A stretch of 36,643 nt of DNA, taken from positions 1 to 36,643 of the forward strand of contig CALRIA010000005.1 in assembly GCA_943359595.1 (NCBI GenBank). The letters run 5' to 3'. The position numbers were made by a program, and so were the translations under genes. The DNA is from Candidatus Magasanikiibacteriota bacterium. GTDB taxonomy: Bacteria > Patescibacteriota > Patescibacteriia > Magasanikbacterales > GWA2-37-8. Every line of letters begins with the position of its first letter. The first letter of the stretch is position 1. Below, in pieces: positions 9,363-17,789 of this stretch. The notes under the pieces are model-generated. The model was not told where the DNA came from and did no database searches. It was given only the letters and a program-made list of their open reading frames with translations.

Positions 9363-9404
9363 GTTATTTATTAAAATTAAAGAACTAATTAAAGAGCAAT
9401 TTTA

Positions 9405-9430
9405 AGGGGGCGTTATTTAGAACGCCCCCT
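9405..9430. terminator. GC-rich hairpin between tuf and rpsJ (terminator or mRNA-stabilising stem)
   Basis: AGGGGGCGTT-atttag-AACGCCCCCT perfect 10-bp stem; U-tract weak. Confidence 0.5.
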
Positions 9431-9438
9431 ATAAAATA

Positions 9439-10629
9439 TTATTTGATAATTTTTACTACTACACCAGAGCCAACGGTACGACCACCTTCACGAATAGCGA
9501 AGTTCATCTTATCTTCCATAGCTACTGGGTTGATCAATCTGATCTTCAAGTTGACAGTATCACCTGGCATTACCATTTCAACACCAGCTGGTAATTCAAG
9601 GATATCACCAGTTACATCAGTTGTACGAATATAAAACTGTGGTTTGTAGCCTTTGAAGAAAGGTTTGTGACGACCGCCTTCTTCTTTGCTCAAAACGTAA
9701 ATTTCAGCTTCAAACTCAGTGTGAGGAGTAATAGAACCTGGTTTGGCCAAAACCATACCACGTTCAACGTCTTCCTTCTTGGTACCACGCAACAATATAC
9801 CAGCGTTGTCGCCAGCTTGTCCTTCTTTCAAGGACTTGTTAAACATTTCGATACCAGTTACTACAGTTTTCATCGGTTCTTCACGCAAACCAACAATGGA
9901 AATTTCATCATTGATTTTGATCATACCACGTTCGATACGACCAGTTACTACAGTACCACGGCCTTCAATAGAAAAAACGTCTTCTACTGGCATCAAAAAT
10001 GGTTTATCAAGATCGCGAACTGGATCTGGGAAATAGGTGTCCATAGTAGACAACAAATCCATAATAGGCTTAGAAGCTGCTTCATCAGTTGGATTTTCCA
10101 AAGCTTTCAAAGCAGATCCACGGATAATTGGAGTGACATCACCAGGGAAGCCATATTTTGTCAAAAGATCACGAATTTCAGCTTCTACCAACTCTACCAA
10201 CTCAGGATCAGCCATGTCTAGCTTGTTCAAAAAAACGATAATGTTTTTTACACCTACCTGATTAGCCAACAAAATGTGTTCACGAGTCTGAGGCATTGGA
10301 CCGTCCGCTGCAGATACTACCAAAACAGCTCCGTCCATCTGAGCAGCACCAGTAATCATGTTTTTTACATAATCAGCATGGCCTGGACAATCTACGTGAG
10401 CATAATGTCTCTTATCAGTTTCGTATTCTACGTGAGCAGTGGCAATAGTAATACCACGAGCTTTTGATTCTGGAGCTTTGTCCAGATCACCTACGCCTTT
10501 TTTTTGAGCGATACCACCGCGGGCATTTAATACCTGCAAAATTGCAGCAGTTAAAGTGGTTTTACCATGATCAACGTGACCAATAGTACCAACGTTAATG
10601 TGAGGCTTGGTTCTACTAAACTCAGCCAT
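9439..10629 (-). CDS. tuf: Elongation factor Tu
   Basis: [49 protein letters not shown]. Confidence 0.99.
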
Positions 10630-10750
10630 AGGATTATACGTTCACGGCACTGTCCCGAGTGGTCGGAAACAGATTTTTGTCCAGCCGCTAAATTTTTAAT
10701 AAAATATTTGTTAATAAAACACGCTAACCATATAGCTGATTAGCGTGGGC

Positions 10751-10778
10751 ATTATAGCAGGTTTTAAAAATTTTGCAA
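10751..10778 (-). promoter_or_regulatory. Putative tuf promoter
   Basis: TTGCAA, 16 nt, TGc-TATAAT on the minus strand, followed by a leader hairpin CACGCTAA...TTAGCGTG (~10720-10747). Confidence 0.6.
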
Positions 10779-10818
10779 GTGGGGAGAAATTGTGGATAAT
10801 TTTTCCTGAACACAATTA

Positions 10819-11223
10819 TTATTCAATGGGTTCAAGATAAAATTTTTCTTCTTCATCTTCTGGCAAACCAGACAAGTTTTCTTCACCAAAAGTTTGCTCA
10901 ACTTGACCAACTTCAAGTGGAATATTGGTTGTTTCCAAAACTGGTTCTGAAATTTTTTCTACTTCTTTTTTCGTATTATCTTCCCAACCTGGGATAGGCT
11001 GTCGTTTTTTTTGATCCTGCCAACGAGAAATATCATGGTTTAATTTATTTAACATATCCTCTTCTTCCAAGTTCTCTAGACAAGAAGTGTCGTTTAATAA
11101 GCTTTCATATTCATTTAGATTCATCAAGACCATGGTTTCGTCAGTTTCCTTATCCATTATTACAAACCTATCCCCAGTACGGCGAACTAATTTGATAATA
11201 CGATCCAATTGATTTTGTTTCAT
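10819..11223 (-). CDS. Hypothetical protein; Phd/YefM-like N-terminus and acidic C-terminus
   Basis: 134-aa ORF with its own TTGACT/TATAAT promoter (11247-11274). RFVIMDK...MVLMNLNEYESL resembles the Phd fold signature. Confidence 0.65.
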   Translation of the reverse strand: MKQNQLDRIIKLVRRTGDRFVIMDKETDETMVLMNLNEYESLLNDTSCLENLEEEDMLNKLNHDISRWQDQKKRQPIPGWEDNTKKEVEKISEPVLETTNIPLEVGQVEQTFGEENLSGLPEDEEEKFYLEPIE

Positions 11224-11290
11224 ATAATAATTAATTATGTTTTTATATTATACCTAAAAACGACAACTAGTCAACCTTTAATTTAAATAA

Positions 11291-11394
11291 TAAAAAATCG
11301 CTCAAGAAAGCGATTTTTTATTTTGCTCTAACCACAAATAATTGTGATTACAGTGTGTGCGCGCCAATCTACTCCTTTGAATTAGATGGCGCGC
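11291..11394 (-). repeat. Structured 3' element copy 1 (hairpin with AUUCAAAGGAG loop, second hairpin, intrinsic terminator)
   Basis: Ungapped alignment to 11751-11854 (offset 460; hand count 74/104 identical), with compensatory changes in the stems. Confidence 0.85.
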
Positions 11395-11435
11395 GGTAAA
11401 GAGGAGGGAGGGCGATTGTTAACGATCGCTCTACT

Positions 11436-11654
11436 CTAGTTGACCGGAGCGAAGATCACGGGGCCAAACGGTCCACCTTCCCGCTTGCGCAGGTAGGCCG
11501 GACGATTCAGCACGCGCAGTTGCGCGCGAGTCGGTCCCGACCACCAGTCGGTGATGGCTGGAACACCTTGCGTCTTTGTCAGGCGCGAGTTGGGGGTGAA
11601 CGCCACCTCGCGAATAAAGAAACTACCATCCAACAAACGAAAGACAAGAGACAT
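11436..11654 (-). CDS. Small hypothetical protein (72 aa), GC-richer than host
   Basis: ATG 11654 preceded by GAGG; own promoter upstream; followed by element copy 1. Confidence 0.5.
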   Translation of the reverse strand: MSLVFRLLDGSFFIREVAFTPNSRLTKTQGVPAITDWWSGPTRAQLRVLNRPAYLRKREGGPFGPVIFAPVN

Positions 11655-11712
11655 GTTAACCCTCACTTTGTCGGGTGAAAAAGGCTTGATAGCCCTGTCC
11701 CGAACGAATTAG

Positions 11713-11741
11713 ACTGTAGCACGGCTTAGCCAAAAAGTCAA
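11713..11741 (-). promoter_or_regulatory. sigma70-type promoter for the 72-aa ORF unit
   Basis: TTGACT (11741-11736), 17 nt, TGc-TACAGT (11718-11713). Confidence 0.65.
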
Positions 11742-11750
11742 TAGTGAACA

Positions 11751-11854
11751 ACAAAAAACCACTAATTAAGCGGTTTTTTATTGTATTCTGACTACAAATT
11801 ATTATAATCAAAATATGCGTGCGCCGAACTACTCCTTTGAATTAGTCGACGCAC
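11751..11854 (-). repeat. Structured 3' element copy 2
   Basis: Same architecture and spacing as 11291-11394; identical 17-nt core CTACTCCTTTGAATTAG at 11829-11845. Confidence 0.85.
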
Positions 11855-11890
11855 ATCTGAGTTTGACACTGACGAAGGGTCATGCCGTAA

Positions 11891-12112
11891 TTAACGGCGA
11901 CGAGGACCACTACGCTGTACAATGCGCTGAGCGTTGGCAAGAGCAACCACGTGTTGCACCTGATAACGATAGTCACGCCGTTGCGCTAATGGGGGGGGCC
12001 ATGGACTGCTGACCGGAACCCGGACAAGATCCAGTTGCCGACAGATCAACGACGAAAGATTATACCCGCCCAAAAAAAACAGAAACGGCAACGGCAAATG
12101 AACAATTTTCAT
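11891..12112 (-). CDS. Small hypothetical protein (73 aa), hydrophobic N-terminus
   Basis: Strong SD AGGAGG (12123-12118) 5 nt before ATG 12112; followed by element copy 2. Confidence 0.55.
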   Translation of the reverse strand: MKIVHLPLPFLFFLGGYNLSSLICRQLDLVRVPVSSPWPPPLAQRRDYRYQVQHVVALANAQRIVQRSGPRRR

Positions 12113-12150
12113 CAAAACCTCCTGGAATGAAAGATTGAACGTGCTGGCAC

Positions 12151-12978
12151 TTATTCAGTTGTCAACACACGTTCAGCGTTGAGATACCATTTGACAATCT
12201 CATAGAGCGAATCGCGTCCAACAAATGGGGATAGCCCATCACCATCCGTCCTAAACGCGAAACCAAGCAGATACGCAGCAATGGCCTCGGCCAGGCTCTC
12301 AGCAATTCCGACAAGTGAATTCGGCGGCAATTGGCCAGTAACTGGATCAAAGTAAGCGCCAGCATAGTGCGAGATTGGCGGGGCTGAATTGATTGCCGCC
12401 TCGGCCTCGCTGATGAACTCGAAAATACTTTTATTGCCAACCTGGTCAGAAACCAAGCGACAATTATCCGAGTTCCACATCTCCACATTGACAATGGAGT
12501 GAGCCAACTCATGAGCCAGACCTTCCAGATGAATGATTCGCCGAATTTCGGGCGCGACCAAATCTTGGATTTGAAATAGGACTGGATTCATTCTAAATCT
12601 ACTCCAGAATCTCGGCGGGAGATTCTCCACATCCACTTTGCTGGGTGCAATTGCCGTGGCAGAAATTGCCTTAGCAATATCCAATGTCGGCACAGGCTTC
12701 TCTTTGGTTGATGCCTGTGTAAACCATACCGAACGATCGAACGTGATTTTGTTGATCAACATGCGATTACGTGCTTTGAGTGGAAAAACCGCCAACACTC
12801 CTTGGATATCTGCCAACGTGAGCACATGAAGGCCGTGTGGATCCTCCAAGTAAAAACGTGGAGGACCGGCAAAATATTGAACAGGCATCGGCAAACGAGC
12901 CGTGAACATTTCAAGATTTGCCTCATACCACTGGATGGTTGGACCCATGTCAAAACCAGAAACTTTCTTGTTCTTCAT
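12151..12978 (-). CDS. Putative zincin-type metallopeptidase
   Basis: LAHELAHS motif plus downstream ISHYA...ESLAEAIAAYL (gluzincin-like third ligand). GGAG SD 6 nt before ATG 12978. Confidence 0.7.
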   Translation of the reverse strand: MKNKKVSGFDMGPTIQWYEANLEMFTARLPMPVQYFAGPPRFYLEDPHGLHVLTLADIQGVLAVFPLKARNRMLINKITFDRSVWFTQASTKEKPVPTLDIAKAISATAIAPSKVDVENLPPRFWSRFRMNPVLFQIQDLVAPEIRRIIHLEGLAHELAHSIVNVEMWNSDNCRLVSDQVGNKSIFEFISEAEAAINSAPPISHYAGAYFDPVTGQLPPNSLVGIAESLAEAIAAYLLGFAFRTDGDGLSPFVGRDSLYEIVKWYLNAERVLTTE

Positions 12979-13039
12979 CGTAAACTCCACTGTGCTTTGA
13001 TTGCCAAACTACTATTGACGAAACATTCGCCAATTTAAA

Positions 13040-13068
13040 ATAATAACAAAAAAAATTAATAAAGTCAA
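13040..13068 (-). promoter_or_regulatory. sigma70-type promoter for the peptidase + 73-aa ORF unit
   Basis: TTGACT (13068-13063), 17 nt, TGt-TATTAT (13045-13040). Confidence 0.65.
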
Positions 13069-13090
13069 TGACTGAAGCTAAGGAATATTA

Positions 13091-13121
13091 AAAAAAACAT
13101 ACTAATTTAGTTAGTATGTTT
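13091..13121 (-). terminator. Intrinsic terminator
   Basis: AAACATACTAA-tttag-TTAGTATGTTT stem with a T-run on the minus strand, downstream of the 13150 stop. Confidence 0.55.
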
Positions 13122-13149
13122 CTCTATATCTATTGTTAAAAAAATATTT

Positions 13150-13953
13150 TTACTTCGTTTCCTTATCGTCATCAATTTTTTCAAAAATAAACATGTCATC
13201 CATATGATGTCCATTTTTATGGGGCAAACCAATGCACAAAACTTTGCCAATATTTTCTATCGCACTATGGCCAGGACCGAGCTTTTTATCTATTTTCCCT
13301 TTTACATAACTATAAAAACTTGGATCAACAGCCTCAAAATCTTCGTCTGTTTCCACTCTTTGCCAATATAAATCTAAATTATCTTTATCAAAAACAGCCT
13401 TTGTTTTTTTTACATCATTTAGCGTATTTATTATGCCAACCAACTTAAAATTTTTATATTCACGCATTTGTGTCGCGGTTTTATGCCAATCATTGCAGAG
13501 CACATGTCCACCAACTTTTAAATTTTTTATTGGACCATCTGGTCGTACGGCTGGATTTAACAAAATAACCACATCAGCCGATTCTGGTAACACAAAATTA
13601 TTGACATCGGCACATTCAGCTTGAAGACCACCTTTTTTTAATACTGCAATCGCCTCTGGATTTTTATCTACAAAAAACACTTGACTGTTTGGAAAACCTT
13701 CGGTAGGACTAGCGTCGACATCACAAGATGGGTAATAAATTATTTTAGGTTCAATATTTAATGTTTCGACAAACAATCTTTGCATCCCGGCCATATTTTC
13801 CGATATACTTGGTTGCCTTTCTATTATTGGTTCTGCTTCTTTTTTTTCGGTATGTTCTATCGGTTTATTTTGACAAGACTCACAAACAGGTAGCCAAGCG
13901 CCACCTTCAACTTCTCCAATCTCATTTTTACCACAGACAGGACAAAGAGACAT
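13150..13953 (-). CDS. Hypothetical protein: N-terminal CxxC..CxxC Zn ribbon plus SAM-methyltransferase-like domain
   Basis: CPVC...CESC. IYYPSCDVD (motif I-like), FFVDKNPEAIAVLK..G..AECADV and LKVGGHVL resemble class I MTase motifs. Confidence 0.65.
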   Translation of the reverse strand: MSLCPVCGKNEIGEVEGGAWLPVCESCQNKPIEHTEKKEAEPIIERQPSISENMAGMQRLFVETLNIEPKIIYYPSCDVDASPTEGFPNSQVFFVDKNPEAIAVLKKGGLQAECADVNNFVLPESADVVILLNPAVRPDGPIKNLKVGGHVLCNDWHKTATQMREYKNFKLVGIINTLNDVKKTKAVFDKDNLDLYWQRVETDEDFEAVDPSFYSYVKGKIDKKLGPGHSAIENIGKVLCIGLPHKNGHHMDDMFIFEKIDDDKETK

Positions 13954-14018
13954 AAAAATTTATAACTTATTTTTTTAATTATATCACATATTTAAAAAAC
14001 GCCTACCACAATGCTCTA

Positions 14019-14729
14019 TCATTCCTTTTTAGCGATCAACAATCGACACATAGAAGCCGGCGAAATGTCCCAGATTTTCAGATCATCACTCAATATTTTA
14101 AAACTATTTTCTTGTAATAATTTTATTCTGGCTCGAGCACCAGCCCGCCATTTCCACCCATGTTTTAATTTACCATAATATTCACCAAACAGTACCGGCC
14201 ACACCAAAATTCCACCTTTTTTTAATACCCGATAAGCTTCTTTAACAAAAATTTCTTGACCTTGTGCGGTCATAAATCTATCAGCCGCCACTTCCACCAT
14301 ACCGTCTATCGAGGAATCGGCCACTGTTACCATCGGACCATTTAAATCTTCTACCACCGTAGGTACATTTTCAAATTTAACTTTTAATTTGTTTAATTGA
14401 TCCTGGCTTAAATCTGAGGCGCACACTTTAAATCCGGCGTCGAGCAATGCTTCCGTAATAATTCCGGTTCCGGCCGCTCTATCGTAAATTGTTATTTGTG
14501 AAGGATCGGCATCAAAATTTTCTAAAAAAACTATACCTATTTGGCGAGCCAATTTTTCTCTACTAAAATAATATCTGGCGACTTGGTCATACATTTCCGC
14601 ATCTCGCTGTGAAGTATATTTATGTACAAATCTAGAGCGCCAAAGCCAACTCAATGCTTCTAACAACGGAGGTTTCTTAGGATAAATCTCTTTTTGTTTA
14701 TAAATTTTTAATCTTTCTTCTTTTGACAT
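14019..14729 (-). CDS. Class I SAM-dependent methyltransferase
   Basis: IYDRAAGTG (motif I), ASDLSQDQL (motif II), EAYRVLKKGGILV. Confidence 0.85.
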   Translation of the reverse strand: MSKEERLKIYKQKEIYPKKPPLLEALSWLWRSRFVHKYTSQRDAEMYDQVARYYFSREKLARQIGIVFLENFDADPSQITIYDRAAGTGIITEALLDAGFKVCASDLSQDQLNKLKVKFENVPTVVEDLNGPMVTVADSSIDGMVEVAADRFMTAQGQEIFVKEAYRVLKKGGILVWPVLFGEYYGKLKHGWKWRAGARARIKLLQENSFKILSDDLKIWDISPASMCRLLIAKKE

Positions 14730-14769
14730 ATGTATTGATCTATCGATTTAAATTATAACACACCGCTCC

Positions 14770-14837
14770 AAAAACAAAAGACCGCCCGTCACTTAAAATC
14801 ATAAACTAATTATAATCTTAAGTGAGTGCGGGCGGTC
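14770..14837 (-). terminator. Unusually long hairpin terminator (~25 bp)
   Basis: Minus strand GACCGCCCG-cac-TCACTTAAGATTATAA-ttagt-TTATGATTTTAAGTGA-CGGGCGGTC-TTTTGTTTTT; the two non-WC pairs are G-U on the minus strand. Confidence 0.7.
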
Positions 14838-14919
14838 GAATGTTCTGACCAGCGCCACTACTCCACCGGCCAAAAGGCCTTTGCCCACCGTATTTCGGAA
14901 GATGGGATTTTAAAGGTAT

Positions 14920-15363
14920 TTACCCTATACCTGCGAAGAAGTGGTTGAGGTAAGCGAGACTGCGAGCGAGTTCTTCCTTCAGCTCGTCATAACCTTCTTG
15001 GCCGGCGTAGTAGGCGACCAAGCCGTGAAACTGCTGATGTCGAAACTCGACATAGTCAACCAAGATTGCCCGTGGCACTTCTTCCAATTCTTGCCTGAGC
15101 GTTTGCACACAACGCCCCTTTTGGCCGGCGCGCTGGACGAATTCGCGCACCTCATGACGCAGGATGTGGTCGCGAAACGCTTCCGGCACTTCCGCCGAGA
15201 TGAAGAGAAACGCGCTCTTGGGAAAGCCGACGAAGTACTTGAGGTCGGTCAATTCGGGATCGGGACTCAGAACGTGGTAGCCGTATTGAGCACCGTCTAC
15301 CTCGAGAACACCTTCCTCTACGATGAACGGTTTGGCCCAATCGGGCGGCTGCGAAATGAGCAT
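14920..15363 (-). CDS. Hypothetical protein (147 aa), GC-rich, with an HExxE-like motif
   Basis: SD GGAGGT directly upstream of ATG 15363 (MLISQPP); ILRHEVREF motif; TTGACT -35 at 15426-15421. Confidence 0.7.
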   Translation of the reverse strand: MLISQPPDWAKPFIVEEGVLEVDGAQYGYHVLSPDPELTDLKYFVGFPKSAFLFISAEVPEAFRDHILRHEVREFVQRAGQKGRCVQTLRQELEEVPRAILVDYVEFRHQQFHGLVAYYAGQEGYDELKEELARSLAYLNHFFAGIG

Positions 15364-15440
15364 GTTTACCTCCGTAACTGTTGAGAGAATGAGATGATAA
15401 AATAGCAAAATATGAAAAAAAGTCAACCCCCGCCATATTA

Positions 15441-15470
15441 AAAAAATACGATCAGACTAATCGTATTTTT
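15441..15470 (-). terminator. Intrinsic terminator after tRNA-Arg
   Basis: AAAAATACGAT-cagacta-ATCGTATTTTT inverted repeat with A/T tails. Confidence 0.6.
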
Positions 15471-15512
15471 GTGTGCGATTATACGCCTCCCGTTTTTCGG
15501 AAAGTGTTATCG

Positions 15513-15587
15513 TGGTGCACCCATTAGGAGTCGAACCTAAATTTTCGGCTTCGCAGGCCAATGTCCTATCCATTGAACGATAGGTGC
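15513..15587 (-). tRNA. tRNA-Arg (anticodon GCG), CCA encoded
   Basis: GCACCTA/TGGGTGC acceptor stem, anticodon arm TTGGC-CTGCGAA-GCCGA, T-arm TTAGG-TTCGACT-CCTAA, 3' ACCA. Confidence 0.93.
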
Positions 15588-15601
15588 GGAATTTCTTACA
15601 A

Positions 15602-16105
15602 CTAAATTTTCATTATCCTACCCATTCGTTCGCTCAAAGGCTCTTCTTCTTGGTCTAAATCTTCTTCCATATATAGAGCTAAGTATTCTCGAATTGGCAT
15701 TGGATCATAATCATACAATGGAACCTGAATACGATGATTCAGCACACTATTTTGTGCAAAATACAGATTTTTGGTAAATGGCGGGTTGTATATAAGCCAA
15801 AAATTAGTTAATTCACTATAGCGATAGTACTTTTTTCCGATTACTACCCCTGTATTGGTAATAGCAAAATATACATCCATCGGAGCTACCATATCTTGCA
15901 TAAACAAAATTATTCCAAACAAGACTGTAATTAGCGCGAATAGATAGTTGGCTGATAATATTGCATAAACGGCTAGAGCAATCCCGATCGCTCCCATCAC
16001 CCAATACCATTGTTGGCCTCTTTCGTGCTGTTCATATTCCTTTACCGTCCACTCGTATTGAACTTCACCAATATTGATATCCTCTTTTAAAATATTTTTT
16101 GGCAT
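15602..16105 (-). CDS. Hypothetical membrane protein (two TM helices plus soluble C-terminal domain)
   Basis: WYWVMGAIGIALAVYAIL / YLFALITVLFGIILF, then FAITNTGVVIGKKYYRYSEL. Start moved to ATG 16105 because the longer ORF overlaps tRNA-Val. Confidence 0.8.
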   Translation of the reverse strand: MPKNILKEDINIGEVQYEWTVKEYEQHERGQQWYWVMGAIGIALAVYAILSANYLFALITVLFGIILFMQDMVAPMDVYFAITNTGVVIGKKYYRYSELTNFWLIYNPPFTKNLYFAQNSVLNHRIQVPLYDYDPMPIREYLALYMEEDLDQEEEPLSERMGRIMKI

Positions 16106-16123
16106 AAAAAAATTTTTAATCCG

Positions 16124-16197
16124 TGGATGATACTGGATTTGAACCAGTGACCTTTGCAATGTGAATGCAACGCTCTAACCAGCTGAGCTAATCATCC
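16124..16197 (-). tRNA. tRNA-Val (anticodon CAC), CCA not encoded
   Basis: GGATGAT/ATCATCC acceptor stem, D-arm GCTC-AGCTGGTTA-GAGC, anticodon arm TTGCA-TTCACAT-TGCAA, T-arm ACTGG-TTCAAAT-CCAGT. Confidence 0.93.
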
Positions 16198-16295
16198 TTG
16201 ATTAGAGGTCAGAATTACTCTACCATAAACAAAAAAAGAAATCAACCCCGATATGTTGCTTTTTATGTTATTTTGTGATACAATTTTCCTACTAT

Positions 16296-17789
16296 ATGTC
16301 AATGAACGAGCCAATAAATCTATTGGAACCACAAGGTTTGGAATTAGACGAACCTAAACCAAAAAAGAAAAAATTATTTTGGCTATTTTTTATTATTATT
16401 GGACTTTTGTCCATTGTCGGTTGCAATACTTACCGCAACTACTCACTTGCAAAATGGTCTGATGATCCAGCCAACTATGATCTGAAGACTTTACAGCCAA
16501 AAAATGTTGGTATTTTACAAACAGTCAAAAATTTTATCTTTCACGCGGACAATGTCCTTGAAGGACAGAAAGACGACCGTATAAATATTTTATTGTTAGG
16601 TATTGGCGGGGCAGGCCATGACGGACCTTATCTAACTGATACCAATATTATACTAAGTATTAAACCTAGTACCAATGAAGTAGCCATGACCTCTATCCCT
16701 CGTGATTTAGGTGTAAATATCGGCAGTCACGGTGTTAGAAAAATAAATTCAGCTGACTCATTTGGTGAAGCGGAAACCGCTGGAGCTGGCGGAGAATATG
16801 CTCGTCAAATTTTTGAAAAAACTTTTGGTATAGATATACCCTATTATGCACGTGTAGATTTTACCGCTTTTCAAGAAATCATCGACGAGGTTGGTGGAGT
16901 AACGGTGAATGTACCACGTTCATTTGTTGATTATGAATTCCCTGGTCCAAATTTTTCTTATCGTACTTTAACTTTTAATGCTGGTGTGCAGGCAATGACT
17001 GGTGATCGCGCATTAGATTTTGCTCGTTCACGTCATGGCAACAATGGAGAAGGTTCAGATTTTTCGCGCTCTCACCGCCAACAGCTGATGATTTCGGCAT
17101 TAAAGGAAAAATTACTTTCTGTTGGCACTTATACCAATCCAATTCGAGTTCAAAGTATCTTACAATCTCTATCCACTCATATTACTACCAACCTCAATTT
17201 TGGTCAGATGATGTATCTAGCCAATCTGGCCAAAGATGCCGATAAAAATATAAAAATGTTAGTGCTGGACAATTCAGAAACTGGATTTTTAAAATCTTAT
17301 ATCGCTGATAGTGGCGCCTATATTTTGGCCCCCCGCACCAATAACTTTGATAATATCAATTTGGCTATCCAAAATGTCTTTGATAACAACCAAGTCAAAA
17401 TTGTCCAGAATTTGTCTACTGAAAATAAATCTATTTTCCCAACCGGAAAAATTCAAATCTTAAATGGAACTTGGCGAGCTGGTCTAGCGGCTAAATATCA
17501 ACAAGATTTACAGGAGAAGGGTTTTTCGACCTTACCAGCGGCCAACAGCCCAAAACGTCCAATTGATGCGACTACTATATATATAGTAAATCCAAAACTT
17601 TCCAACGATATAGTGCTAGCAATACAAAAAGAAATTACCGCCAAGGTGGAAAAGGGCTTGCCAGAATGGATAAAAAATGGTAGTACTAACGTAAATTCTA
17701 GCACTGAACAGTCCAATCCAAATTTAAAATTTAATACAGAAGCCGATATACTGATTATATTAGGGTCGGACTTAAGTGATAATAAATAA
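16296..17789 (+). CDS. LCP (LytR-CpsA-Psr) family protein with LytR C-terminal domain
   Basis: N-terminal TM, INILLLGIGG, LTDT, SIPRDL, KINSA, ALDFARSRH, SDFSRSHRQQ; C-terminal IQILNGTWRAGLA...ADILIILGSD. ATG at 16296. Confidence 0.92.
   Translation: MSMNEPINLLEPQGLELDEPKPKKKKLFWLFFIIIGLLSIVGCNTYRNYSLAKWSDDPANYDLKTLQPKNVGILQTVKNFIFHADNVLEGQKDDRINILLLGIGGAGHDGPYLTDTNIILSIKPSTNEVAMTSIPRDLGVNIGSHGVRKINSADSFGEAETAGAGGEYARQIFEKTFGIDIPYYARVDFTAFQEIIDEVGGVTVNVPRSFVDYEFPGPNFSYRTLTFNAGVQAMTGDRALDFARSRHGNNGEGSDFSRSHRQQLMISALKEKLLSVGTYTNPIRVQSILQSLSTHITTNLNFGQMMYLANLAKDADKNIKMLVLDNSETGFLKSYIADSGAYILAPRTNNFDNINLAIQNVFDNNQVKIVQNLSTENKSIFPTGKIQILNGTWRAGLAAKYQQDLQEKGFSTLPAANSPKRPIDATTIYIVNPKLSNDIVLAIQKEITAKVEKGLPEWIKNGSTNVNSSTEQSNPNLKFNTEADILIILGSDLSDNK

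Follow-up and report, generated by a model that had tools for sequence, protein, structure and literature searches.

A structured 3'-untranslated-region RNA motif with a Shine-Dalgarno-like loop at a single locus of one Candidatus Magasanikbacteria genus

The targets and decoy RNAs of CsrA/RsmA present GGA in hairpin loops; STAB-SD stabilisers and ribosome standby sites, which lie in 5' regions, are Shine-Dalgarno (SD)-like sequences that do not serve initiation and are proposed to bind 30S subunits; and attC sites, with conserved stem ends and a variable centre, fold as single-stranded DNA. Structured 3' untranslated regions (UTRs) acting in cis are known from icaR of Staphylococcus aureus (PMC3868564) and hbs of Bacillus subtilis (PMC5737220), where, according to the available excerpts of both papers, a tract rich in pyrimidines, which can pair with the SD of the same gene, precedes a terminator. 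For Bacteroidia, the accessible part of PMC9976891 describes an anti-SD occluded by the proteins bS21, bS18 and bS6, and autoregulation of rpsU via an extended SD read by S21-free ribosomes; SD-dependent rpsU autoregulation in this class is also the subject of PMC7797042, PMC13000453 and PMC13000457, as far as their available excerpts go. Here, we describe an element present in two copies on the minus strand of a 36,643-nt stretch of DNA (the window), which is the entire contig C5 of a Candidatus Magasanikiibacteriota genome (G000; 933 kb in 51 contigs, rated 100% complete). The element is real: a structured RNA motif of 3' UTRs which had not been catalogued before. It is restricted to a single locus in one genus of the candidate phyla radiation (CPR), and its first hairpin displays an SD-like loop.

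A repeat search of the window returned a gapless direct repeat of 100 nt (11293-11392 versus 11753-11852) with a spacing of 460 nt and an identity of 73%; an initial annotation of this DNA had given the same gapless offset and a slightly too low identity of ~71%. A 17-mer common to both copies, CTACTCCTTTGAATTAG, occurs exactly twice in the window, against 0.11 occurrences expected from shuffling. Folding of each copy on the minus strand gave three hairpins, namely hairpin 1 (H1), hairpin 2 (H2) and a third one fitting the definition of an intrinsic (Rho-independent) terminator, with a predicted GC-containing stem-loop followed by a U-tract. The fold energies were -49.6 (z = -10.8) and -48.4 kcal/mol (z = -10.0), none of 200 shuffles did as well, and folds of the plus strand were far weaker (-39.1 and -22.7 kcal/mol), in agreement with the three-part minus-strand structure that had been put forward initially. 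H1 is GC-rich, contains a bulged U and carries the apex AAUUCAAAGGAG in both window copies, and compensatory swaps between the two copies can be seen in the alignments. In the predicted fold the loop is partly self-paired, UUC with GAG (part of GGAG). The parts of the two copies are as follows:

11359..11394, minus strand: H1 of copy 1 (proximal), with GC-rich stem, bulged U and apex AAUUCAAAGGAG; supported by folds, 17-mer position and covariation
11372-11378, minus strand: AAAGGAG in the H1 apex of copy 1
11326..11353, minus strand: H2 of copy 1, an AU-rich 12-bp stem with conserved U-G wobbles and a 4-nt loop; supported by folds and covariation
11289..11322, minus strand: intrinsic terminator of copy 1, with A-tract, 15-bp stem and U-tract; supported by terminator scan, fold and inverted repeat
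11819..11854, minus strand: H1 of copy 2 (distal), with the same apex as in copy 1 and different stem letters; supported by folds and alignments
11832-11838, minus strand: AAAGGAG in the H1 apex of copy 2
11786..11813, minus strand: H2 of copy 2; supported by folds and covariation
11748..11784, minus strand: intrinsic terminator of copy 2; supported by inverted repeat and fold

Only these two copies are present in G000, both at this locus, and alignment of the region 11291-13000 to the whole genome by BLAST produced nothing beyond the copies themselves and short AT-rich chance matches. A Logan contig of run X1 spans positions 10363-11971 without differences and thus bridges both copies; the run may be the source sample of the window, so it does not count as independent. 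No joint at the repeats was seen in contigs of three DNA runs compared over 9400-16300, a type of data that cannot show absence.

Across 100 genomes of the family, BLAST found full-length relatives exclusively in the genus of the window. A covariance model of H1 plus H2 matched 14 of the 100 genomes at E 0.01 or better, including 9 of the 11 other genomes of the genus, with weak matches elsewhere in the family; some of the latter (G059, G017 and G003) combine a GC hairpin, an H2-like hairpin and a terminator without the GGA loop. In an order-wide sample, 6 of 151 genomes had matches at E 0.001 or better, two of them outside the genus at 31-33 bits. Further loci were fetched via the neighbouring gene p134, 13 from metagenomes and 9 from genome contigs (titled Candidatus Magasanikbacteria). 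Pooled with the genome regions, these gave 29 matches from 24 sources, of which the 27 distinct copies constitute the alignment used throughout. All strong copies belong to one genus of Candidatus Magasanikbacteria and to one locus, between tRNA-Arg and the Phd-like gene p134 upstream of tuf. The additional copies that a covariance-model search was expected to reveal were therefore found and, because they exist, neutral decay of a duplicated terminator does not explain the repeat pair.

The same searches placed the element in no catalogued family. At Rfam release 15 gathering thresholds the whole window yielded two tRNAs and no other family, as the initial annotation, which did not recognise the family, had anticipated; in an E-value scan of 11200-12200 all matches stayed below threshold, the best being a terminator-driven one to Leu_leader (29.2 bits versus a threshold of 50). 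A degenerate pattern scan of 12 genomes of the genus recovered the known sites and two AT-rich chance matches without a hairpin. We also considered a miniature inverted-repeat transposable element (MITE) or other dispersed repeat, the match which had been named at the outset as speaking against the element, and discarded it: the copies are not dispersed, the strong matches in relatives all lying upstream of p134-tuf and the two in G000 sharing one locus. A phage origin was likewise rejected, as blastn against a phage collection gave no match to the element, and the 17-mer occurred in three viral contigs as a bare 17-mer without the structure.

In the 27-copy alignment, 94.6% of cells in paired positions showed standard pairing, compared with 39-49% when the partners were slid by 1-3 columns, changes on both sides were found in 16 of 27 pairs, and 0 of 500 shuffles reached the observed covariation score; the alignment was fitted to the model and its rows are related, and these figures therefore lean towards structure. 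The compensatory pair swaps described initially for two copies are accordingly visible as covariation in 27. Within the H2 helix, 95.4% of cells were paired, with U-G kept at three positions in 23, 19 and 12 of the 27 rows. Because these conserved U-G pairs are A-C mismatches on the other strand, the structure belongs to the minus-strand RNA, which supports the argument from G-U versus C-A made in the initial annotation. At the level of comparative sequence evidence, a minus-strand RNA structure under selection is thus supported. Two other interpretations were discarded on the way, namely a DNA operator for p134, ruled out by covariation and the G-U asymmetry, and a signal in the stop codons of the H1 arms (UAA, UAG), which are explained by stem covariation of CUA/UAG with CUG/CAG.

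The H1 loop, said initially to be invariant, is so between the two copies of the window; among relatives it drifts and keeps the GGA core, with variants including AAUUCGAAGGAG, AAUUUAAAGGAG, AAUCCAAAGGAG, GAAGGAG, AAGGA and others. Two builds of H1 were distinguished. Type I, with the loop AUUNAAAGGAG, is the build of every distal copy and of those proximal copies that belong to the window's clade, and type II has an internal loop and an apex of 5-7 nt, e.g. GAAGGAG or AAGGA. Of the 27 H1 hairpins, 25 had AGGA, which lay at or near the apex in 24, and 20 had AAGGAG, on stems that differ in sequence. A small open reading frame (ORF) or true SD use of the loop was also tried and dropped: UUG follows GGAG after 4 nt in copy 1 only, and copy 2 has no start.

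The backbone of the locus consists of tRNA-Val, tRNA-Arg, a variable stretch of 1-4.3 kb, p134, tuf and rpsJ. The proximal element lies directly in front of the p134 promoter in the window and in nearly all loci of the genus, and nine loci have a second, distal copy 437-1352 nt upstream of the proximal one. Each window copy is placed 3' of a small GC-rich ORF, continues into the terminator and is followed directly by the next promoter; per element there is a single GGA hairpin, situated 36-40 nt behind the stop codon and distant from any start. The surrounding features are listed below:

11436..11654, minus strand: p72, gene of a 72-aa GC-rich small protein with motif RPAYLRKRE, SD GAGGG at 11660-11664; its 3' UTR is copy 1
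11891..12112, minus strand: uA, gene of a 73-aa GC-rich small protein, SD AGGAGG at 12118-12123; its 3' UTR is copy 2
11713..11741, minus strand: promoter-like site for p72 (TTGACT, 17 nt, TACAGT, with TG), immediately following the terminator of copy 2
11247..11274, minus strand: p134-tuf operon promoter (TTGACT, 16 nt, TATAAT), immediately following the terminator of copy 1
10819..11223, minus strand: p134, genus-conserved gene downstream of the element, without SD (alignment, synteny)

The p72 ORF is conserved in relatives, with indels in frame, and its codon-position differences (386/323/726) put the third position at about twice the first or second. Homologues of uA precede the distal copy in eight loci, with a strong SD in each; here the third-position excess is milder (1050/1000/1304), and identity to the homologue in G011 by tblastn was 48%. 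Compared with each other, uA and p72 are unrelated. The elements are thus the 3' UTRs of two conserved small-protein genes and not of arbitrary accessory segments: what the initial annotation had said of their 3'-UTR position in front of terminators, at the ends of two transcripts, holds, and its description of the transcripts as accessory or variable cargo does not.

Complementarity to the ribosome was assessed against the genome's own 16S rRNA, which ends in GGATCACCTCCTTTCT and has therefore retained the anti-SD. The loop motif AAAGGAG is an exact complement of this tail over 7 nt, as befits the SD-like loop that had been noted initially. Apex/16S-tail duplexes, whose energies exclude the cost of opening the loop, reached -7 kcal/mol or better in 22 of the 27 copies, with a mean of -8.3 kcal/mol versus -4.8 +/- 0.4 kcal/mol for shuffled apexes (0 of 200 shuffle rounds as low). 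The apexes of copies 1 and 2 gave -8.8 and -8.7 kcal/mol, respectively; the apex values are comparable with those of the real SDs of p72 and uA (-8.8 and -11.5 kcal/mol). Because the loop is complementary to the organism's own 16S tail, the ribosome decoy suggested in the initial annotation stays a live reading.

The genome in which this loop occurs makes little use of the SD. Upstream of 686 ORFs of at least 150 aa, an SD core was found in 6.1% of cases versus 6.8% of random windows, with G depleted at positions -13 to -4. In the same ORFs the base just before ATG was T in 78%, and positions -13 to -3 were A-rich and G-poor. The window's genes for ribosomal proteins lack an SD, strong SDs are present throughout the uA and p72 families, and SD-led ORFs genome-wide are mostly GC-rich. 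In 10 of 10 genomes of the genus that were examined, an S21-like gene begins with GTG and has GGAGGTGA in front of this start, a sequence able to pair with 8 nt of the 16S tail. The organism thus unites three genomic traits that mark SD-blind translation: a genome-wide lack of SDs, a kept anti-SD and an extended SD on the S21-like gene.

Two further features bear on the SD. A hairpin related to type II H1, with the loop AGAAGGAG, is situated in the 5' UTR of a GC-rich, SD-led 97-aa ORF on contig C30, where promoter, hairpin, C-rich tract, SD and ORF follow one another in this order; in genome G006 the same leader precedes a different GC-rich ORF, and the leader looks portable. Since related copies occupy a 5' UTR in both genomes, the H1-type hairpin is not merely a 3'-end device. 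In a scan of G000 for GGA-loop hairpins, the C30 hairpin was the one further convincing site, the remainder lying inside long ORFs. Type II and C30-type hairpins differ in pairing register, and a model joining the two was given up for this reason. The second feature is a C-rich tract found before every proximal H1 examined. A pseudoknot between this tract and the H1 loop was considered and rejected, as the tract abuts the base of the 15-bp helix and complementarity is poor in several copies. Coordinates are as follows:

G000:C11:7763-7996 (locus L086 1470-1728): S21-like gene, 78 aa
G000:C30:9634-9682 (locus L083 1133-1180): 5'-UTR hairpin
G006:C10:4041-4113, minus strand: 5'-UTR hairpin in a relative
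11398..11413, minus strand: C-rich, G-poor tract directly 5' of proximal H1, complementary to the SD region of p72 itself

The explanation which we favour, tentatively and at a little less than an even chance, is that the element acts in cis as a module for termination and stability in the 3' UTR, with an H1 loop that would be an SD mimic docking free anti-SD tails. H2 and the terminator would bring the transcript to an end, protect its 3' end and keep read-through from reaching the downstream promoter, a proposal with good support in the anatomy of the locus. The apex of H1 would pair with the free 3' tail of 16S rRNA, and in a cell with a normally occluded anti-SD only those 30S subunits that expose theirs would read it. 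In this way, translation or stability of SD-led mRNAs could be tied to the pool of ribosomes with exposed anti-SD, H1 acting as a standby or tether site or as a decoy in cis. In addition, the SD of the gene may be bound by the C-rich tract that lies 5' of proximal H1. A more far-reaching form of the proposal, to which we attach a low probability, is that the genus independently evolved or retained a Bacteroidia-like SD-blind translation with SD-anti-SD pairing reserved for regulation. H1 would then represent a new class of cis-element, a UTR SD mimic sensing or titrating 30S subunits with exposed anti-SD (e.g. S21-free ones) and controlling a small regulon of GC-rich genes that are SD-led and encode small proteins, among them a family with an FtsZ-tail-like motif.

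A number of observations weigh against an anti-SD-docking module. The region was looked up among RNA sequencing runs and no run had a match. Two proximal copies of the 27 have lost AGGA, and five pair with the 16S tail more weakly than -7 kcal/mol. Locus L058, with 5 kb upstream available, lacks the element at E 0.1 or better, and locus L067 keeps the GC hairpin only, so the module is dispensable. The copies are related by descent, so part of the loop conservation is not independent, and the two copies of the window may have been homogenised by gene conversion. As GGAG is part-paired with UUC and type II loops measure only 5-7 nt, anti-SD pairing would need local opening. The S21-like match is below curated cut-offs (Pfam 22.5 bits, TIGR00030 22.2 bits), and the pocket residues that occlude the anti-SD are described, in the available part of PMC9976891, as specific to Bacteroidia; we infer occlusion in the present organism by analogy only. 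The signal for 5'-3' pairing, finally, is weak (permutation p 0.038, related sequences).

Other explanations were weighed on the same evidence. H1 could be the site of a loop-binding protein, either a functional analogue of CsrA or one of the upstream small basic proteins acting on its own mRNA; this is unlikely on balance, yet deserves serious attention, given that a covarying stem closing a short apical loop with GGA has the classic geometry of a protein site, that loops of 5 to 7 nt suit a protein better than a 7-bp RNA duplex, that specific U-G wobbles are kept in H2, as often in protein or RNase sites, and that the upstream proteins are basic and without a known family. However, these two protein families are mutually unrelated and still share the element, and no candidate protein has any evidence in its favour. 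CsrA (PF02599) had no match in six frames of G000, with positive controls in E. coli, B. subtilis and T. maritima, and Hfq and ProQ were not found in this genome either, despite its rating of 100% complete, which leaves the CsrA-type recognition considered initially without support. Measured against CsrA/Rsm-type targets, the element does have GGA in an apical hairpin loop (AGGA in 25 of 27) and does not have two or more GGA sites per target or overlap with a regulated SD. The possibility that the module amounts to no more than a strong terminator of several hairpins which protects the 3' end and insulates the essential promoters behind it, its loop likeness inherited or gene-converted and without a recognition role, appears doubtful. 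A promoter does follow directly after each copy, the proximal copy precedes the tuf operon in nearly all loci of the genus, the weak matches in G059, G017 and G003 show that such hairpins can occur without a GGA loop, and AGGA is missing from 2 of 27 copies. Against this, the stems diverge with compensatory changes and the purine core stays across two H1 builds, shuffled apexes are far poorer partners of the 16S tail than the real ones, and a related hairpin is located in a 5' UTR, where termination is unneeded.

Somewhat less credible is a 5'-3' UTR switch, in which the C-rich tract would pair with the gene's own SD and silence the gene, as in icaR, and the H1 loop would compete or modulate. 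The tract stands before every proximal H1 and pairs with the SD in the minimum free energy (MFE) fold of the whole p72 transcript, cognate SD/tract duplexes were stronger than non-cognate ones (-11.9 versus -10.8 kcal/mol), and two loci with matches of 8-10 bp, L066 (10 bp at -19.1 kcal/mol) and L041 (-15.7 kcal/mol), are striking. The pairing is nevertheless missing from the centroid fold, distal copies have no obvious C-rich tract, the tract abuts the base of a 15-bp helix and hence cannot reach the H1 loop in cis, and the statistics are weak, related sequences being compared and G-rich and C-rich strings pairing whatever the partner. It is very improbable that a ~105-nt fragment (H1-H2-terminator) is processed from the 3' UTR to act in trans as a small RNA with the H1 loop as its seed. 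The module is indeed compact, very stable and terminator-ended, and the loop is its most conserved single-stranded part, but such a seed, being SD-like, would be expected to act on CUCC-like sites, and the 16S tail aside these are not known to serve as regulatory targets, the genome lacks Hfq and ProQ, H1 is preceded by neither a promoter nor a conserved processing site, and the RNA runs contained no match to the region. A recombination or mobilisation site at the DNA level, be it an attC-like cassette end, a target hairpin of a diversity-generating retroelement (DGR) or a MITE, we consider hardly credible at all. Two direct copies flank a small gene, the variable region adjoins tRNA-Arg, and the genome carries two DGRs; yet the H1 stems are each self-complementary and differ from each other, so that no crossover in the shared core has mixed the arms, and the G-U asymmetry points to RNA. 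Moreover, contig C5 has no reverse transcriptase (RT) and no tyrosine recombinase, the sole PF00589 match of the genome being on contig C2, the template/variable repeat pairs of both DGRs are unrelated to the island and the element, the copies are confined to one locus per genome, the contigs compared show no joints at the repeats, and no phage or viral relatives were found. With respect to attC (whose consensus was not scanned for), no integrase lies near an array, and it is the centre that is conserved and the stems that vary. The handle for capturing or mobilising an upstream segment, as imagined in the initial annotation, is not supported, given the lack of RT and recombinase on the contig, the dissimilar DGR repeats and the lack of phage matches.

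Several properties of the neighbouring genes are recorded here in their own right. Searches of Pfam and NCBIfam assigned no family to p72, uA, p279, p168, p267, the C30 ORF or a 301-aa ORF of G011, and a look-up of p72 in the ESM Atlas gave no usable match. uA ends in an Arg-rich tail. p72 shares the motif P-A/S-Y/F-L-R-K/R with its relatives, many of which are small membrane proteins. A similar stretch forms the very C-terminus of the FtsZ encoded by this genome (ELEIPAFIRKKMGI; FtsZ at L081 838-2076), and judging from this likeness in sequence the family may be FtsZ-tail mimics binding FtsZ partners. The 5' UTR of p72 (11655-11712, minus strand) is conserved at the nucleotide level after the promoter-like site, and directly before the SD it forms a hairpin, UCGGG...CCCGA around an inner GGCU/AGCC stem. 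The N-terminus of p134 is weakly Phd/YefM-like (a Pfam match at E 1.8e-4, which is below cut-off), its acidic linker varies in length, and its C-terminus is an invariant EEEKFYLEPIE; TTGACT of its promoter is present in 21 of 22 upstream rows, and its leader is AU-rich and without SD. The genes p279, uA and p72 are held in a GC-rich island (11350-13000; GC 0.45-0.62 versus 0.36 for the genome), with further GC-rich islands on C24 and C30, and p279 (12151-12990) has a HELAH metalloprotease-like motif. The stretch from tRNA-Arg to p134 (11223-15513) is a hotspot of variable gene content of 1 to 4.3 kb; in the window it includes a methyltransferase gene (14019-14729) and three ORFs without family, and other species carry different genes. 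The two DGRs are located at G000:C7:614-2494 and G000:C25:7652-9532, with an RT beside each repeat pair; the pairs measure 126-134 nt at 87% identity, and 15 of 16 and 16 of 17 differences fall at adenines of one copy.

In the literature searched, no structured conserved 3' UTR has been described for the CPR, and such UTRs are still rare in bacteria; likewise, no paper was found that joins rpsU, Shine-Dalgarno and Patescibacteria, and supplementary surveys could bear on this novelty. Should the loop dock ribosomes, the element would offer a handle on the role of a conserved anti-SD in SD-less bacteria outside Bacteroidia, as well as on small-protein regulation in tiny CPR genomes without CsrA, Hfq and ProQ. 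Should it not, the element would be a genus-specific terminator and stabiliser module of modest interest.

Set beside the described systems, the element resembles attC and DGR hairpins in that a short gene has an imperfect hairpin at its 3' end and the arrangement is repeated, and departs from them in its strand-specific G-U pairs, in the conservation of the loop rather than of stem ends, in its single locus and in having no integrase or RT nearby and no template repeat. With CsrA/RsmA targets it shares GGA in an apical hairpin loop, unlike them showing a single GGA hairpin per element and no start-site overlap, in a genome without a CsrA gene. Like STAB-SD and standby sites, it contains an SD-like sequence which plays no part in initiation and would bind 30S; those are in 5' regions, whereas this one is in a 3' UTR, though with the related 5'-UTR copy at G000:C30. 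The order of structured cis-acting 3' UTR, pyrimidine-rich tract able to pair with the own SD and terminator is common to icaR, hbs and the present locus, as judged from the excerpts available. In contrast to both, the element displays an SD-like and not an anti-SD loop, its module is common to two unrelated genes, its host is otherwise without SD use, and its pairing is computed only and weak. In comparison with rpsU of Bacteroidia, the SD-like part is in a UTR hairpin loop with no start codon at SD distance, and the host belongs to a CPR phylum with more SD-led genes, mostly GC-rich, and an anti-SD whose occlusion is presumed. The likeness to Bacteroidia, to the extent covered by the accessible part of PMC9976891, lies in an SD-poor genome that keeps its anti-SD and places an extended SD on an S21-like gene, a setting in which SD-like elements would be special-purpose signals.

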